A stretch of 62,758 nucleotides of DNA, counting the filler, from Asterionella formosa (Eukaryota), in assembly GCA_002256025.1 (NCBI GenBank). It is 24 parts of 24 records of this genome, joined end to end, with 100 filler letters (N's around TTAATTAATTAA, not from the genome) between each part and the next. Parts side by side here need not be neighbours in the genome. Positions count along the whole stretch, not along the records: positions 57,643 to 60,148 come from NKIB01015178.1; 23 more parts are not named here. The stretch is one strand, 5' to 3'. The position numbers and the translations under genes were made by a program. Below are positions 3,990 through 60,248 of this stretch, in pieces. Each line of letters opens with the position of its first letter. Within the stretch, counting starts at the first letter, position 1. The notes beneath the pieces were generated by a model that saw only the letters and a program-made list of their open reading frames with translations, was not told where the DNA came from and ran no database searches.

Positions 3990-5163
3990 AATAAACACTG
4001 TGTGAATAAGGTGCGAGCATTAATGAACATGCCTCCTCCTCCCACTAATCTCAAACAATTTTTATCTTTTCTGGGTTTTGCAGTTTCAGTTACTTATCAT
4101 AGGGACATGCATGTCTCCTTACTGTTCTCATGTTCTTTGCCCACTGAAAGATTTCATCGGAACTGGTCCATTTGTTTGGTTTCCTATTCATCGCTATAGC
4201 AGATTCTAAATCTCGCCTCCCAAAGCTTGAGTCTTTGGGTGGGGTATGATCTTGGGCCAACATCTTCAAAATTAACATCCGATTCTTTTTCTCAATTGAA
4301 TTAGATGATAAGCCTCTGCTTACCTGTTCTGTTTTCTCAATTATCCAGTTTTGGCAGACAATATTCAATATCCTTTGGATTGTAATTTGATACATGATTG
4401 AAAATTGTTGGATATACAATTGATTCCCAATCAACAAACAAATCCTTTAGCATTTCCCTCTAATCAATTTTCATGATATTGACTTAATGTGTTTTGTGAA
4501 GAATCCAGGGGATACTTTGCGTATTGCTATACCTACTAATTAATTGGTATCATCATATGTTAACCCATGTGGTTATGACAAGATTGGATGCTACAATTGC
4601 TACTCATTTTTATCAACCAACATTTAAAACACAAGTGGAGCACACTGTACTAAGCATATGTGAAGCATGTCAATGTACAAAATTACCTAGCTAGTGCTGG
4701 TTATGGTGAACTTCCACCTCAGAATGCTTATGATTCCATGTTCAGAAGTTGCAGTGGATTTAGTTAGCCCATGGAAAATAACAGTGGCTGCACAAGCAAT
4801 TGAATTTTGTGCTTTAACTTGTATAGACATAGCTAGTATCAACATTAACACATCAGATTATAATGTTTTGAAATTCGAAAATGATTGGCTAGCCCAGTAG
4901 CCCCATCCACAACGTTGTATCCGTGATAATGGGGGTGACTTTAGTACTGGCAAATCTTTTCTACACATGCTGACTCTGAATAGAATTAATGATGTCACTA
5001 CTACAGTCAATAATCGTCCGCAAGATAATTCTATTTGCGCCTGTTTACATCAATCCTTCAGTGGCAGTTTCGTGAAATGTTCCTCCACTCAATGAATTTC
5101 AAGCTCAGAATATTGTGGATAGTAAATGTTTCGCCGCTGCATCCTATGCAGCTCGAGCTACTA
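3990..5163 (+). mobile_element. Degenerate Ty3/gypsy pol remnant (RT end / RNase H / integrase)
   Basis: Fragmented motifs PPTNLKQFLSFLG, YGELPP..PCSEVAVDLVSPW, CIRDNGGD in Gypsy order, with many stops and frameshifts. Confidence 0.7.
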
Positions 5164-12268: not shown

Positions 12269-14227
12269 CTGTAGTGATCAGTTAGTTAGTAGTTCGTGTC
12301 GCTCCATGTGTCCTTTGCTAGAATAGACTAAAATCGCGCCATCGAATAATAGAATAGCGTGCCAAGAAAAAGCTAAATTATCGCAAATGGCTTTCTGAAT
12401 TCGTTGCTAATAAGAAACGTGTCCAGTTCCCAAACTCCGGATTTAGTTCCATCCTATCTCCGGGTTTTGCGGCAGTCGAGATGTGCTTTGCCATGGGAGG
12501 GAAGTGGGTGATTTTAAACTATAAATTGCGAAAGGCTTTGCGATGTTTAGACTGTTTCTTTTAGCTGGCTTCAAAGAATTGTGTGCTTCACACATGTACC
12601 AATCTTACTACAAATGATAACCTCACGTGCTGGCTGGTTATTATCTTTCACCCTTACTATATAGCTCATGACTCCTTGGTTGTTCGATTCAACTCTAAAG
12701 CTAGAACTTAATAGTCACGTCATCGCTATATTAATATCTCAGCTTTGAATCCTTTGACTTGATTTGCAAGGTTTATTCCTTATGATGTTTGTGTGTCCTG
12801 GCCCATTGCCTCCATCCTTGTCTGTTATGATAGTATCAAAGCACAAGGAGGCAAGTAGGAGAACCTCTCCCTGTATGTATATATACTGGTAATATGACCG
12901 TAAAATGCTTTCTTATCATTCTGTCTGATTCTGGTCTGAATTGAGTCATTCCTGATTGATTCTAAAATGATGCCCTCCAAAGCAATGTCTGACTTAAACA
13001 TGTCAACAACATCCACCAAAGACTACTTGTACTATCTGAAAACCTAAACCANNNNNNNNNNNNNNNNNNNNNNNNNNNNNNNNNNNNNNNNNNNNTTAAT
13101 TAATTAANNNNNNNNNNNNNNNNNNNNNNNNNNNNNNNNNNNNNNNNNNNNATAGTCATCAACTAATATTTGCCATGCCATCAGGGACATACGGAAAACG
13201 TGCTTGGCTTGTACACATGGAAGAGAATTTTTGATACATGTTTTAGAATTCGACGCAAAAACTAAAAGCGTTATACGTTAATGTCCTTTGGGATGGGCCG
13301 GCGGGGGCAAAATGCATGCACGCCAGCCTTCCCACCAAGGAAACTTTTAACTTAAGCAGGAAGCTGACCTCATGCTGAAACTTAAGCAGCAAATGTCAAT
13401 CTTGCTTAAACTTAATCAGCAAACAAACTTCTAAGTACATTAGGGTTAGGGGATATCTTTTTCAGTCTACTGGTACCTGATAGCAGCATAGAGGGGAGCT
13501 AAGAACGCAATGACAGTGTTCAGAAGTAAAATTCTCCCGGAAAACCCAAGTGGTTTTGTCAGCCTATCGACTGTGATATATGATGACAAAAATACCGGCA
13601 TATCTAATGAAAAATGTAAAATGTTTTTAATAGACTAGCTACCGGTACTTTTTACAAATAAAATAGTATGATTTCTGTATGGGAATTAGTTAGTAGTTTT
13701 TATAGCAATTGTGGACTCAATTGAAATGTACCCTGAGTATAATGACTTGGTGGTGGAAACATCAATATGACAATGATGATTACATGGTGATCCAACTATT
13801 CTAAACAGATAAATAGTGAATTATAAATCAATTTTTGTTTTGGGCCTGATCCCTTGTAGACAATGGAGCATTGTAGAACGGCGCATATGTACAAATAATA
13901 AGTTTTCAATGTGACAACGAGGCATCAAGATATCATCATCGTCGTCAAGCCCACTTGTGGGTTTCCGATTTCACTGTTTCTGTTACATCTGAACAAATCT
14001 AGTAGCTACAAAGTTTAGCTATTTTTAGCCTATATTAAATTGTTTATTTAAGCAAAATGGCTGCAACTTGCAGGTCCCTTGCAATTTGTTGCGGTAATTG
14101 TGCTGAAACTAAAACATTAGCTTTTTTAATCTTTTATGTTAAATTGTTTATTGAAGCAACTTGCTCTGGTACCGCTACCAGGTAATGGGAATCCAAACCC
14201 AACTTCCTGGAGTGACATACCTGCGTA

Positions 14228-15678
14228 CCGTAAAACCTGGTGTCTCGTACCCCTCAATGTACACAGCCACGACTGATTTTACTTAGAGGGGAGTACAAAA
14301 CATTGGAACTTTTTTGATTGTCAAACTTTTATGAAAAAACCAACTTCACCACCGTTTTCTCCATAGTCTAAAACATAAATAGCAACATTAAAAGATATAT
14401 TGTTTTAGGTTCAATCGGCTTCGAGGATCAATTGAATTTCTATTTTTGGAGCACTGGCGCGCCCGAATTTCGTCATGACTTCAACAGAAATTTCTAGAGT
14501 GTATACAATTTGTACCTGATTCTACGATGTAATAAATTGTGTAGGTTCTACAAACCTAATCGTGATAGAAATTAAGGTTAGCCAACCAAATCATTTTCTA
14601 CGGAATCATCAGCATGACAACGAAAAAGGCAAAAGAAAAATATTGTTGCGGAAGCATACAGCAAGCCCAACAATATCAAGGCAACCGCCAGAGCATATTT
14701 GGTTCAGCCAAAGCAGATCCGGAGCTGGAAGTCCATGCTGGATGGTGCAATGGTTGTGGTTCCGGCGGAGGTGGCGGAGATTCCTCTGCAGGAAGAAGGT
14801 GTGATTCAGAGGCAGGTGTTGATGAAAAAAATCGCTCACCCGGGCCGCTCTCCAAAAAGTGCTGCTGATTTCGAAGGATTGAAGACTCTTTTTGACCAGT
14901 TGCGGCTTCAAGATAGGGCCTGCACCACCAGGATGCTCAGTGTTGAGCTTAAGAGGCAACCTGGGAACGAAAATGTGTCGCTGAAGGCACTTGAAAAACG
15001 GATCAAGCGCTGGCTTGCCCGTGAGGACATTGTCATTAGGCGTGTGACTCGTGTCGCCCAAAATACAAGGCTGGATCAGGAGACAATTCAAGATTTTGTT
15101 TCCTACGTCAACAATCAAATTGCTGCGTTCGAATATTCTGCTGGAAACATTGTCAATATTGATGAGACAAACATCAATTTTGACATGTTTGGATCAAAGA
15201 CTTTGGCAACCCGAGGCGAAAGGACCATTGGGCTTCGAACAACAGGAAATTCGAATCGTTGCACTGTGTTGTTAGGGGTGACAATGAGTGGTGAGAAGTT
15301 GCCACCATTCATTGTATTTACAGGAACAAGGGATGGACGTATTTCCAGGCAATTGGGATTACTAGACAACAATCAACAACTTTTTCCGGTCAGTATTAAA
15401 TACGCTTGTCAACCCAAAGCTTGGGTTGATACAGACATATTTTTACAATGGATCGAAAAAGTTTGGCAACCATTTGCGTTGGGAAAAGGCGGTGAGCCTA
15501 CTCACCTTCTTATGGATGATTTTACTGTCCACAAGGTAGGACGTTGTGTTGATGCAATTAAAAATTGCGGCACTGAGATTGATTTCGTCCTCCCAGGCTA
15601 CACATCTAGACTTCAAGTGTTGGATGTAGGAGTTAATAAGCCCTTCAAGGACTACATGAGAGGATATTGGGAAGACTA
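14228..15678 (+). mobile_element. pogo/Tc2-type DNA transposon, left part (TIR plus transposase)
   Basis: TA|CCGTAAAACCTGGTGTCTCGTACCCC at 14226-14253 is the inverted match of 59568-59597; followed by the transposase. Confidence 0.9.
14618..15678 (+). CDS. pogo-family DDE_1 transposase (HTH + CENP-B-like HTH + DD35D), 3'-truncated by the contig end
   Basis: NIDET, VLLGVTMSGEKLPPFIVF, QPKAWVD, LMDDF-x-LQVLDVGVNKPFK; 35 residues between second and third Asp; frame open back to 14618 (QKKNIVAEAY..NIKATARAYLVQPKQIRSW). Confidence 0.92.
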
Positions 15679-56748: not shown

Positions 56749-57542
56749 TCATCTTTGGTCGTCATAGATTCGCTTGCCCTTGTAATAAGTTTTGGCAGTG
56801 TTGCGCGACCGAAACGCATTCTTCATTCCACTCCGCTTCTTTCTGTCCTCCAAATGCTGCTGCACTCTGCGCCTGGCAATGATTTCCGCTTGCGATCGAC
56901 TCTGCGCAGTGAACACTGAAATTTCATCTTCATTGAGAAGTATGTCACGGACATGATCTTCGGCAGCATCATCGGAATCGTAGTTGTAATCGCCATTCTC
57001 AACAGCTTTATCATCTGGAATAACAGGCACGCTGTGGTGGACTGCTTGTTCTGGCTCGAAATGAGCAATTTCAGGAGATTCAGTGTTGGAACCTTCGTCA
57101 TTTTCCTCACTACTTTCGTCCTGTTCGTCGTGCTCATCTGGCGCATCCAATCCACCCTTATTGACTACGACCGTGTCTGTGAAGTAAAATAACTCCATCT
57201 TTCGAGAAGCATCCCGATCGGAAAACCCGCTGGCTTGCAATTCTTCGTCCAATCGTAGCTGTGCACGACTTGCCAGGCACGTTGATTGATCGTCGGGAAC
57301 TGCATTTTCTGTAGGTTTCGTTACATCTTCCCATCGCGGAATCATGTCTTCCCAACCATCTTCAGGGATGCACTTGAGTTTCATGACAAAGAATCGTTTC
57401 AAGCACTCGCAATCACGTTCATACAAATCCTTGGCGTTGGGATGTCGGGTTGATACCATTTGAGGAAAGTCAATCAGAGTTACAATGGGTCGCGGTTCAC
57501 CGTTCGCCAATACTTGAGCAGGTTTGGGAGCTTCTTCAGTGA
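56749..57542 (-). CDS. RIO2: RIO2 atypical kinase, C-terminal part
   Basis: LIDFPQMVSTRHPNAKDLYERDCECLKRFF, RLDEELQASGF, acidic tail and terminal RN..K motif. Confidence 0.9.
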
Positions 57543-57642: not shown

Positions 57643-58748
57643 TCCGGAGCTGGAAGTCCATGCTGGATGGTGCAATGGTTGTGGTTCCGGCGGAGGTGGC
57701 GGAGATTCCTCTGCAGGAAGAAGGTGTGATTCAGAGGCAGGTGTTGATGAAAAAAATCGCTCACCCGGGCCGCTCTCCAAAAAGTGCTGCTGATTTCGAA
57801 GGATTGAAGACTCTTTTTGACCAGTTGCGGCTTCAAGATAGGGCCTGCACCACCAGGATGCTCAGTGTTGAGCTTAAGAGGCAACCTGGGAACGAAAATG
57901 TGTCGCTGAAGGCACTTGAAAAACGGATCAAGCGCTGGCTTGCCCGTGAGGACATTGTCATTAGGCGTGTGACTCGTGTCGCCCAAAATACAAGGCTGGA
58001 TCAGGAGACAATTCAAGATTTTGTTTCCTACGTCAACAATCAAATTGCTGCGTTCGAATTTCCTGCTGGAAACATTGTCAATATTGATGAGACAAACATC
58101 AATTTTGACATGTTTGGATCAAAGACTTTGGCAACCCGAGGCGAAAGGACCATTGGGCTTCGAACAACAGGAAATTCGAATCGTTGCACTGTGTTGTTAG
58201 GGGTGACAATGAGTGGTGAGAAGTTGCCACCATTCATTGTATTTACAGGAACAAGGGATGGACGTATTTCCAGGCAATTGGGATTACTAGACAACAATCA
58301 ACAACTTTTTCCGGTCAGTATTAAATACGCTTGTCAACCCAAAGCTTGGGTTGATACAGACATATTTTTACAATGGATCGAAAAAGTTTGGCAACCATTT
58401 GCGTTGGGAAAAGGCGGTGAGCCTACTCACCTTCTTATGGATGATTTTACTGTCCACAAGGTAGGACGTTGTGTTGATGCAATTAAAAATTGCGGCACTG
58501 AGATTGATTTCGTCCTCCCAGGCTACACATCTAGACTTCAAGTGTTGGATGTAGGAGTTAATAAGCCCTTCAAGGACTACATGAGAGGATATTGGGAAGA
58601 CTACATGGTTGCCAATGTGGATAATCCCAAGGTGCAAAGGCACCACATTGCACAATGGGTAGAGATGGCATGGGCTAGAGTCTCAATTCAAACAATCACC
58701 AATACCTGGAAGAGCATTGGATATGAGGGCTTTGCTGATGTTGACTAG
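57643..58748 (+). CDS. pogo-family DD35D transposase (5'-truncated by the contig start)
   Basis: Intact NIDET / MDDF / QVLDVGVNKPFK and C-terminal WVEMAW..VS...I.NTWKSIG. Confidence 0.93.
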
Positions 58749-58987
58749 TCAATAAGGATTGGATTATTTGATAATCTATTTTAACATTTAGTTTTAGTGA
58801 AACAATCATTATCGTCAATGAGATTCAGGATGGCATTTCCTAATAGGCAAATAAATTAAGCTGATGACTACAAAAAACCCAAAACGGAGTGATTCTAATG
58901 CTGAAAATGCTAATTTCTAATACTATTATGAACATTCTAGTGTAGATTGGTTGAAGTATTCAAAGGCTTGTCCAGTTTTCATAACAT

Positions 58988-59380
58988 CTATTCCTGAATC
59001 TGGATGTCCTCAAGAAGCCGGAATGAACAAACTCCAAGGTTATTGTGGCTTTTTGCCCTTTTGGCAGCATTTTCACTAGAGTCATAGAGTTCAATAACTT
59101 GAGCAAACTTGTTGACAAACTTGTCACTTGTTTTCTTCAAAGCTGCAATATTCTTGCCAAGGAAACCAACTGTGCACAGTTCCGTCCCATCAAGGATCAG
59201 AACAGCCTTGATACCTGCCTGATCAACTCCATCAATCGGGACCACTGCTGCCTTGAACCGAACACAATCATTCGGCCTCACAATTGCCCCACAGCAGGCA
59301 TGCTGCTCACAGCTTCTTCCATTGGTGGTACCTCTGAGGCCAAGGATTTCGCCATCACGAATGTCGTCCGCAATCATCAT
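58988..59380 (-). CDS. 130-aa HIRAN-like protein with a CxxHxxC motif, inside the transposon TIRs
   Basis: Intact ATG-to-stop ORF; EILGL...NDCVRF...AGIKAV...TVGFLGKNIA resembles the HIRAN pattern (ivG...l.l...aikV...vGyip...a); fold call made by eye only. Confidence 0.65.
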   Translation of the reverse strand: MMIADDIRDGEILGLRGTTNGRSCEQHACCGAIVRPNDCVRFKAAVVPIDGVDQAGIKAVLILDGTELCTVGFLGKNIAALKKTSDKFVNKFAQVIELYDSSENAAKRAKSHNNLGVCSFRLLEDIQIQE

Positions 59381-60248
59381 GTTGCCAACCGGTATATGTG
59401 ACGATATTTTACAGGTGATGATACTTTACCGGAAACAGTAGGGTACCGGTAATATACGAAAATACATACTAATAAATAGAATACGTTTATGTTGTGTTAT
59501 TTTTTCTGTACACAGGAAATATTTGGGAGTGTTGCGCCAGATGTACAAAGGGGGGTACAGGTATCTGGGGGGATACGAGACACCAGGTTTTACCGTACCT
59601 GATACCTGGTACCAGTACTCCGAGTAAGACCTGGTACCAGGTACCAGGTACCTGATACCGCCACGGAGTAGCACAGCTACGTTATGTACGGTATATCCTG
59701 GCTAAGAATATTGGTGATACTACTATGTAGCAGGGCACCAGGTATTTCAGGTACCAGGTACCAGGTACCATCCCGCAGACAACATCACATACTAAAATAC
59801 GGGTACCGGTACTAATGGGTCCTATCATCGCGTAGGAAACGAAGTCGTCGTGCCTCAGGGACGCGACGAGACGAGGATTCAGATTCAAAGATTCTGGTTT
59901 GCACACCGTCGCTGATAAAGCAATTTTCTCAAGTCGTGTCTCATGTTGATTGGATCTGGTTCGCACGACGTTGCTCATAAAACAGATCAAAAATCGATCT
60001 ATAATCCCATACTGCATACTATTCAAATTCTTCTAAATCGCACCAGAATGAAGGCATCCTTCCGTTCAGAACCTCCTCCCTTCTCCGAAGACTTGATTGA
60101 AAATTCCTTGAAGCTCAAGTGGTTTCTCCAAATGATGCATGAGCTTGGNNNNNNNNNNNNNNNNNNNNNNNNNNNNNNNNNNNNNNNNNNNNTTAATTAA
60201 TTAANNNNNNNNNNNNNNNNNNNNNNNNNNNNNNNNNNNNNNNNNNNN

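Follow-up and report, generated by a model that had tools for sequence, protein, structure and literature searches.

A cut-and-paste transposon of the pogo superfamily, found in a 62,758-base stretch of Asterionella formosa DNA (assembly GCA_002256025.1; hereafter the window), belongs to a lineage of autonomous type, in which the transposase gene is accompanied by a second, convergent gene for a small protein that forms an old and integral part of the element. This two-gene pogo lineage is real and apparently undescribed, and its two-gene structure, the age of the arrangement and the selection acting on the small gene are solid results. The fold predicted for the small protein resembles the HIRAN domain reproducibly, with moderate scores, and we lean towards the view that its gene is an accessory gene integral to the element, whose product has a HIRAN-like fold and would serve the element through nucleic-acid binding.

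Structure of the element

The window consists of 24 contigs of 2,506-2,532 bp each with 100-nucleotide (nt) spacers between them (N around TTAATTAATTAA); since it was joined from separate contigs, adjacent pieces are not genomic neighbours. The left end of the element lies on contig 6 and the right end on contig 23 (Table 1). These contigs share an overlap of 961 bp that is 99.8% identical and contains 2 mismatches (BLAST; 14718-15678 corresponds to 57643-58603), giving a composite element of about 2,443 bp with matching termini and TA flanks; as they differ at 2 positions, they may represent two copies of the element. The complete element is present in a metagenome contig of 2,730 bp, L002, where it occupies positions 81-2516 (2,436 bp) with both termini, and where an intact 407-aa (amino acid) transposase, read from its ATG, is found together with an intact 130-aa open reading frame (ORF) 98% identical to that of the window. 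Because L002 holds the entire element in one contig, the reconstruction of a single element from two contigs is correct. A preliminary description of this DNA had proposed a ~2.44-kb element from two overlapping contigs, with matching termini next to TA, a pogo DD35D transposase and, between the transposase stop and the right terminal inverted repeat (TIR), an intact 130-aa minus-strand ORF with ~215 bp of upstream space; each of these points is borne out.

At the left end, TA is followed by CCGTAAAACCTGGTGTCTCGTA, and at the right end, in reverse complement, TA is followed by CGGTAAAACCTGGTGTCTCGTA, with 21 of 22 positions identical. BLAST pairs 14225-14256 with 59598-59566 on opposite strands over 33 columns at 91%, and the 20-nt core of the TIRs has exactly two occurrences in the window, one per strand, where 100 shuffles give an expectation of 0.00. 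Short TIRs, as in the pogo superfamily, are therefore present, and both ends are found in L002 as well. The TA dinucleotides outside the two window termini may stem from two copies; on the ORF side TA was found in all nine of the loci measured.

The window transposase matches the Pfam domain DDE_1 (PF03184) with an E-value of 1e-22 (81 bits, cutoff 22), and the same domain is found in its relatives from L002 (E 5.5e-23) and from a second metagenome contig, L004 (E 3.1e-22). Residues D188, D307 and D343 (L002 numbering) are invariant in a 3-sequence transposase alignment, and the 35 residues between the last two give the DD35D spacing; we take these to be the catalytic aspartates following the pogo motifs (DET, DxxxxH, LD.G) and not from a structure. 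Matches to an N-terminal helix-turn-helix (HTH) fall below the curated cutoffs, both in L002 (HTH_Tnp_1, E 1.6e-4; BrkDBD, E 4.6e-3) and in L004 (CENP-B_N, E 1.1e-3). In contig 6 an in-frame transposase ORF extends from 14735 up to the contig end, and compared with the intact L002 this copy lacks 14 bp directly after ATG 14614 (within 14614-14640), so that its HTH-like N-terminus is out of frame; the transposase of contig 23 comprises only 362 aa because that contig starts at 57643. The enzyme is an ordinary transposase of the pogo superfamily.

The second gene encodes a stand-alone protein, of ~120-140 aa across the lineages, and in the window its ATG lies 215 bp inside the right terminus. 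The spacer between the two genes measures 238-303 bp in other lineages. An ORF antisense to the small gene (59045-59401, plus strand) was rejected as a coding frame, given that the protein read from the minus strand belongs to a large conserved family, shows low ratios of nonsynonymous to synonymous substitution (dN/dS) and has a confident fold.

Table 1. Features of the two-gene element and the contigs that carry it (window positions)
Feature	Position	Strand	Description and basis
Contig 6	13152-15678		Carries left end of the element
TA flanking left terminus	14226-14227		Contig 6 copy; read from the sequence
Left TIR	14228-14256	+	CCGTAAAACCTGGTGTCTCGTACCCC...; BLAST pairing and 20-nt core count
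Transposase, 5' part	14614-15678	+	ATG at 14614; three-frame translation, ORF list, comparison with L002
Contig 23	57643-60148		Carries right end of the element
Transposase ORF	57660-58748	+	Contig 23; 362 aa from an internal Met; DDE_1 domain, DD35D
Spacer between convergent stop codons	58749-58987		239 bp; one AATAAA at 58850
Small gene (putative accessory gene)	58988-59380	-	Intact 130-aa ORF; predicted HIRAN-like six-stranded barrel; C24-x2-H27-x2-C30...C69
Region upstream of small gene	59381-59565	-	Presumed promoter and 5' untranslated region; subterminal GTA(C/T)CCCC repeats
Right TIR	59566-59595	-	Reverse complement CGGTAAAACCTGGTGTCTCGTATCCCC...; BLAST pairing and 20-nt core count
TA flanking right terminus	59596-59597		Read from the sequence

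Just beyond the right TIR, window positions 59598-59800 contain a repeat rich in GGTACC / ACCAGGTACC. In contigs assembled from RNA runs this region has very high summed depth, many joints and many loose ends, and it is therefore regarded as a separate abundant repeat. GGTAC-type sequence also adjoins the terminus in metagenome loci L013 and L014.

Linkage of the two genes and selection on the small gene

The genomic context of the small gene was read from 16 loci, obtained in one metagenome contig scan with the family alignment and a single peptide pattern, and sorted by all-against-all BLAST into about six lineages. The identity of their ORFs to that of the window is ~98% in lineage A (L001-3), 60% in B (L004), 57-60% in C (L005-11), 44-49% in D1 (L012, L013, L016), and 42% in both D2 (L014) and D3 (L015). 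A convergent transposase gene lies immediately downstream of the ORF in 7 of the 16 loci (L001-5, L010 and L015), which span the four lineages A, B, C and D3 and extend to transposases with as little as 38% identity to that of the window. In L004, where 303 bp separate the two genes, both are intact, the ORF having 136 aa and the transposase 394 aa. Elsewhere the contig ends no more than 160 bp past the ORF (5/16), the locus is an L005/L010 element copy that has lost its transposase region (3/16; L007-9), or the ORF is followed by 750 bp of tandem repeats as far as the contig end (1/16; L012). None of the 16 loci shows the ORF in a non-element setting.

The same arrangement is seen at the termini. 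Each of the nine loci measured has TA with a related terminus (CCGTAAAA..., CCGTATAC... or CCATAAA...) at 153-215 bp upstream of the ATG; the termini form a CCGTAAA/CCATAAA family, and two G(T/G)(A/C)C-C-rich repeats come next inside. The sequence outside the ORF-side terminus differs within lineage D1 (L012, L013, L016) and within lineage A (L001, L002, window), and such different flanks among copies of one lineage indicate separate insertions.

Selection on the small ORF was estimated as dN/dS by the method of Nei and Gojobori (NG86). Values of 0.18-0.20 were obtained between lineages A and B (window-L004, 0.18), 0.11-0.12 between D1 and D2 (L012-L014, 0.12) and 0.26 between B and D3 (L004-L015); these between-lineage figures are rough, because dS is at or past saturation in most pairs. 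Among the near-identical A copies, where few changes are available, the ratio is ~0.28. No value approaches 1, and the comparison of coding sequences supports purifying selection on the small gene. All four A-lineage copies are free of stop codons where covered, L003 beginning at residue 7.

The two genes also diverge in the same rank order. Identities of transposase and ORF are 47% and 60% between A and B, 42% and 48% between B and D3, and 38% and 42% between A and D3, which is weak evidence, from three lineages, that both genes may have descended together within the element. The ORF is conserved at least as strongly as the transposase (60% versus 47% between A and B).

These results bear on the possibility that the ORF is a passenger, a host fragment captured once and without a role. 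Class II elements do capture host fragments, and the ORF is broken in lineage C, as a passenger might be. Against this, the ORF keeps its position and orientation where the transposases are only 38-47% identical, its dN/dS is 0.11-0.26 between lineages, the four A-lineage copies are intact where covered, and it equals or exceeds the transposase in conservation. A passenger is therefore very improbable, and this explanation is largely excluded. The preliminary description had looked for one-off capture in a dN/dS near 1 and in homologues mostly unlinked to transposases; what was found is a ratio far lower, tail-to-tail linkage with a transposase in 7 of 16 loci and a non-element setting in none.

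Several of the loci show rearranged copies. The seven copies L005-L011 are 97-99% alike; in all of them the ORF is interrupted by the same two in-frame stops and the transposase is fragmented, and L007-9 are also without the segment corresponding to L005 1188-2181. Lineage C is a recently amplified non-autonomous sub-family. Candidate termini are present in L010 at 2151-2168 and 4360-4377 (TACCATAAATCCCGTGCT) and are 94% complementary. In L001, ~550 bp of the transposase are missing near position 944 compared with L002, and a contig from RNA run X15 joins 58171 to 58751, omitting 579 bp, so that internal-deletion derivatives are in circulation. The tandem array of L012 (617-1366) starts directly past the small ORF and has units of roughly 45-70 bp (AATAATAATAATTGGTG.ATTGTC.GCTCGGTGATC-like).

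Protein family and predicted fold

A word-indexed search with the window protein found 60 proteins at E ≤ 0.01, with identities from 98% down to 39%. HMMER over 1.84 billion cluster representatives recovered 728 at E ≤ 1e-3, 264 at E ≤ 1e-10 and 9 at E ≤ 1e-30, the 728 being clusters at 50% identity. Most family proteins have 115-170 aa, and the domain is C-terminal in longer members. Their sources are nearly all metagenomes; among 20 clusters checked, a single one is assigned to a named organism, the rhizarian Spongospora subterranea, its protein being uncharacterised. No Pfam domain was detected at E ≤ 0.01 in 20 longer family members, and at E ≤ 10 the matches in 89 members were weak, including DUF6578 in five (best E 0.0072) and HIRAN (PF08797) in two. 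No fused form longer than 308 aa turned up when longer proteins were sought, which is weak evidence; a PHROGs search returned nothing meaningful, and no family member was found in viral contigs or prokaryote genomes, each searched with one peptide pattern.

Ten residues, G14, G21, R22, C24, H27, C30, G31, C69, F73 and G116, are each at least 90% conserved in the 89 members, and the same set was obtained in a second alignment of 75 sequences. The CxxHxxC insert with a distal Cys, pointed out in the preliminary description, is nearly invariant and is the most conserved feature of the family. C24, H27, C30 and C69 could form a structural zinc site, which is plausible since each of these four candidate ligands is at least 90% conserved. 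The first three lie in the loop that follows strand 1, and the distal Cys is on a strand further along.

Structures were predicted with AlphaFold2 for the window protein (model 1; 29 sequences) and for the Spongospora member, which is 46% identical to it (model 2; 75 sequences). Model 1 has a mean predicted local distance difference test score (pLDDT) of 81 and a predicted template modelling score (pTM) of 0.76; for model 2 these values are 91 and 0.83, with all five models at 89.7 or above. Both predictions contain six strands and two helical segments. The Cys/His loop lies between the short strand that comes first (DGEI.GL) and the remaining strands.

The two models were structurally aligned against 48,161 chain representatives of the Protein Data Bank (PDB). 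Only three chains reached Z ≥ 5 with either model: 3k2y_A, lp_0118 of L. plantarum (for models 1 and 2, Z 6.8 and 7.2, root-mean-square deviation (rmsd) 3.4 and 3.3 Å, 90 and 92 residues aligned); 4xzg_A, the HIRAN domain of HLTF (Z 5.9 and 6.3, rmsd 4.3 and 4.2 Å, 89 and 89 aligned); and residues 181-290 of 6l8o_A, Rad5 of K. lactis (Z 5.4 and 5.3, rmsd 3.9 and 4.0 Å, 86 and 87 aligned). The next best chains, of various kinds, had Z 3.6 and 4.7. Re-alignment of the top 1,000 Foldseek chains gave 3k2y (Z 6.8), 6kcs (6.1), 4xzg (6.1) and 4s0n (6.0; rmsd 2.9, 82 aligned), the next being at 3.6. The phage AXL1 HIRAN protein, assigned to pfam08797 with E 9.6e-14 in the part of PMC9206674 available, matches by sequence both the HLTF HIRAN chains (E 1.6e-6) and 3k2y_A (E 0.0059), which ties lp_0118 to HIRAN.

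The matches also differ in their extent. Those to HIRAN begin at model residue 4-8 and take in strand 1, and those to oligonucleotide/oligosaccharide-binding (OB) folds begin at residue 30-36; the latter are OB domains of capping enzymes and ligases, with SmpB lower in the lists. The HIRAN domain is described in the available part of PMC4666394 as a six-stranded barrel with two helices, having OB topology plus an N-terminal strand and being somewhat like SmpB, and the inclusion of strand 1 in the HIRAN matches alone fits this description. On the evidence of the two models, the small protein is probably HIRAN-like in fold.

The OB matches (Z 3.5-4.7, second only to HIRAN) raise the alternative of a zinc-binding OB-like protein outside the HIRAN family, recognising the termini or subterminal repeats of its own element, much as PIF/Harbinger elements encode a Myb-like second protein. 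All sequence and profile tests against HIRAN being negative, and GTCCTGCACCCC-type subterminal repeats being present on the ORF side of the element, such a protein deserves consideration; HIRAN structures are nevertheless the top three of the 48,161 chains with both models, N-terminal strand included, and we regard the OB-type explanation as unlikely.

A number of observations weigh against the view that the small gene is an accessory gene integral to the element and encodes a HIRAN-like fold. Concerning the fold, the four other AlphaFold2 models of the window protein have pLDDT of 47-76, and the Z scores stay under 8, a range that may reflect a common arrangement. Foldseek against PDB found nothing at E ≤ 1e-3 with either model, and its HIRAN chains (4s0n, 6kcs, 4xzg, 3k2y) had template modelling (TM) scores of 0.38-0.48, probabilities of 0.72-0.82 and E > 0.1. 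The window protein has no Pfam match at E ≤ 1, and the better of the two PF08797 matches in the family has E 0.12; PDB profile searches gave chance-level matches or none, with no HIRAN chain at E ≤ 10. With hhalign, one phage HIRAN sequence was aligned in a plausible register at a probability of 0.9%, and a narrow profile of 19 phage HIRAN sequences (effective number of sequences about 2) at 8.8% over 12 columns. The position of the HLTF Y72 loop is occupied by the Cys/His loop. Concerning the element, linkage was read from 16 loci of a family with 728 clusters, L002 is flanked by TA on the ORF side and by CA on the opposite side, and, as lineage C has spread with a broken ORF, the small gene is not required in cis for mobilisation.

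PDB sequence searches with the small protein likewise gave chance-level matches or none. In both Foldseek searches the HIRAN chains had the best TM scores, except for a small arcadin-1 chain with a higher target-normalised TM score in the search with model 2. The best scores in the ESM Atlas, 0.77-0.78, are below the level that counts; two nearby clusters, with HIRAN in 23% and 11% of their members, are a lead only. The HIRAN fold proposed in the preliminary description thus stands in one respect, HIRAN structures being the sole matches at Z ≥ 5 for two models, and fails in another, the protein lacking any sequence or profile match and a Foldseek E-value of 0.1 or better. Because every sequence-based test failed, the small protein cannot be counted as a demonstrated HIRAN family member. 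In HLTF, Y72 belongs to a loop of the dinucleotide cavity that binds the 3' end of DNA, the pocket comprising Y72, Y93 and N90/N91 (PMC4666394, available part); since this loop is replaced by the Cys/His motif, a conserved 3'-end pocket cannot be claimed for the small protein.

Possible roles and relation to known systems

Tc1/mariner and pogo elements are textbook transposons that need their transposase alone. A second gene kept under selection through deep divergence, with transposases down to 38% identity, therefore points to a step of the life cycle beyond the action of the transposase alone. The small protein would be expressed from a promoter in or beside the TIR and may bind nucleic-acid ends, by analogy with HIRAN domains. 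When a Tc1/mariner element is excised by DDE cleavage, its ends carry free 3'-OH groups and the donor site is left with overhangs. The 3'-OH ends of the excised element or of the donor gap would be likely substrates, and their binding could help transposition through protection or pairing of the ends, through an influence on target choice or through a bias in how the donor site is repaired; insertion might also be directed to 3' ends at forks or gaps. That the protein takes part in transposition as an accessory factor working on DNA ends is a tentative proposal, somewhat short of an even chance. It is rather unlikely that protists harbour a widespread, hitherto unrecognised class of pogo elements encoding a zinc-bearing HIRAN-type reader of 3' ends that couples insertion or donor-gap repair to replication; the ends so read would, with similarly low probability, be those of the cleaved transposon or of nascent strands at replication forks or gaps. 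A predicted complex of transposase, small protein and zinc scored 0.00, a value obtained without controls that counts neither for nor against binding.

Conservation and linkage show that the element benefits, and not in which manner. The small protein might instead serve it outside the chemistry of transposition, either as a regulator or inhibitor of the transposase or against the host, by binding ends of small RNA or DNA and so blunting silencing or the sensing of damage for repair. A fold that binds nucleic-acid ends would be equally suited to such roles, and the spread of non-autonomous copies without an intact ORF is compatible with a protein that acts in trans or is dispensable. Nothing specific to silencing or regulation was found, however, and no homologue is known to act in such a way; we consider a regulatory or anti-host role improbable. 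If the accessory protein does read DNA ends, it would offer a small, tractable handle on end protection, target choice and donor-site repair, and a possible modifier for pogo-based gene-transfer tools. For the more than 700 unannotated protein clusters of its family, the present results provide an initial view of genomic context together with a hypothesis on the fold.

In its DDE_1 domain, DD35D motif, short TIRs and the TA next to its window termini the element is like other members of the pogo superfamily (Passer, Fot/Fot-like). The DD35D spacing is characteristic of the Passer and Fot/Fot-like groups, whose elements occur in stramenopiles, and the pogo elements surveyed in the part of PMC7386202 available have one or two ORFs, all for the transposase; unlike these, the present element adds an opposite-strand gene for an unrelated small protein. 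The protein itself shares with HIRAN domains (PF08797; HLTF, Rad5, lp_0118 / 3k2y) the six-stranded barrel with two helices (Z 5.3-7.2, 82-92 residues aligned), and differs from them in having no sequence or profile match, in being a stand-alone protein encoded by a eukaryotic transposon and in carrying the Cys/His loop in place of the HLTF Y72 loop. Zinc is unmentioned for HIRAN in the available part of PMC4666394. No HIRAN domain linked to a eukaryotic transposon was found in the literature searched; the supplements to the surveys PMC7386202 and PMC7325037 could list such ORFs uncommented.

In architecture the nearest analogues would be MuDR and PIF/Harbinger, in both of which a transposase is joined by a second protein encoded by the element. 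In maize MuDR the genes mudrA and mudrB are convergent, with promoters in the TIRs and each gene starting near a terminus, as in the present element; in PIF/Harbinger the partner is a Myb-like DNA-binding protein. Both differ in belonging to other transposase superfamilies and in encoding an unrelated second protein. The Tn7 protein TnsE, which selects targets by recognising 3'-recessed ends at replication structures, may be compared by analogy as an accessory protein that reads DNA 3' ends to guide a DDE transposon; it differs in being bacterial, in belonging to an unrelated protein family and in working with a heteromeric transposase. Within the IS630-Tc1-mariner group, the ciliate TBE/Tec elements carry ORFs besides the transposase, including one on the complementary strand, and additional ORFs are otherwise mentioned in general terms only in the part of PMC7325037 available. 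TBE/Tec elements differ in their DD34E motif, in having three ORFs including a site-specific recombinase, in their much larger size and, as far as that text describes them, in lacking a HIRAN-like gene. If the small protein were a reader of 3' ends, it would be a eukaryotic counterpart of TnsE-style end-directed targeting and the first accessory factor in Tc1/mariner-pogo outside ciliates.

Across 14 studies, 20 public runs contain sequences nearly identical to the element; most of these runs are metagenomes from freshwater and rivers, and six of the 20 are recorded as metatranscriptomes. Both genes are covered by contigs of four metatranscriptome runs from three studies, and one 592-nt contig from run X16 spans 58982-59579, covering the small ORF in full and reaching upstream of it into the TIR. 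Inside the small ORF the RNA-run contigs show no splice joint. As RNA libraries can hold DNA and the contigs are strandless, these contigs show presence and not proven transcription. In X16, X17 and X18 both genes are covered and the bins between them (about 58795-58866, to 59010 in X17) are not; separate transcripts were considered for this gap and the argument was not used, the contigs revealing neither strand nor ends.

The GC content of the contigs in the window ranges from 0.37 to 0.50. On contig 22, a minus-strand ORF of 253 aa (56749-57510), with an acidic C-terminal half, reaches the contig edge and resembles a piece of an ordinary eukaryotic gene.

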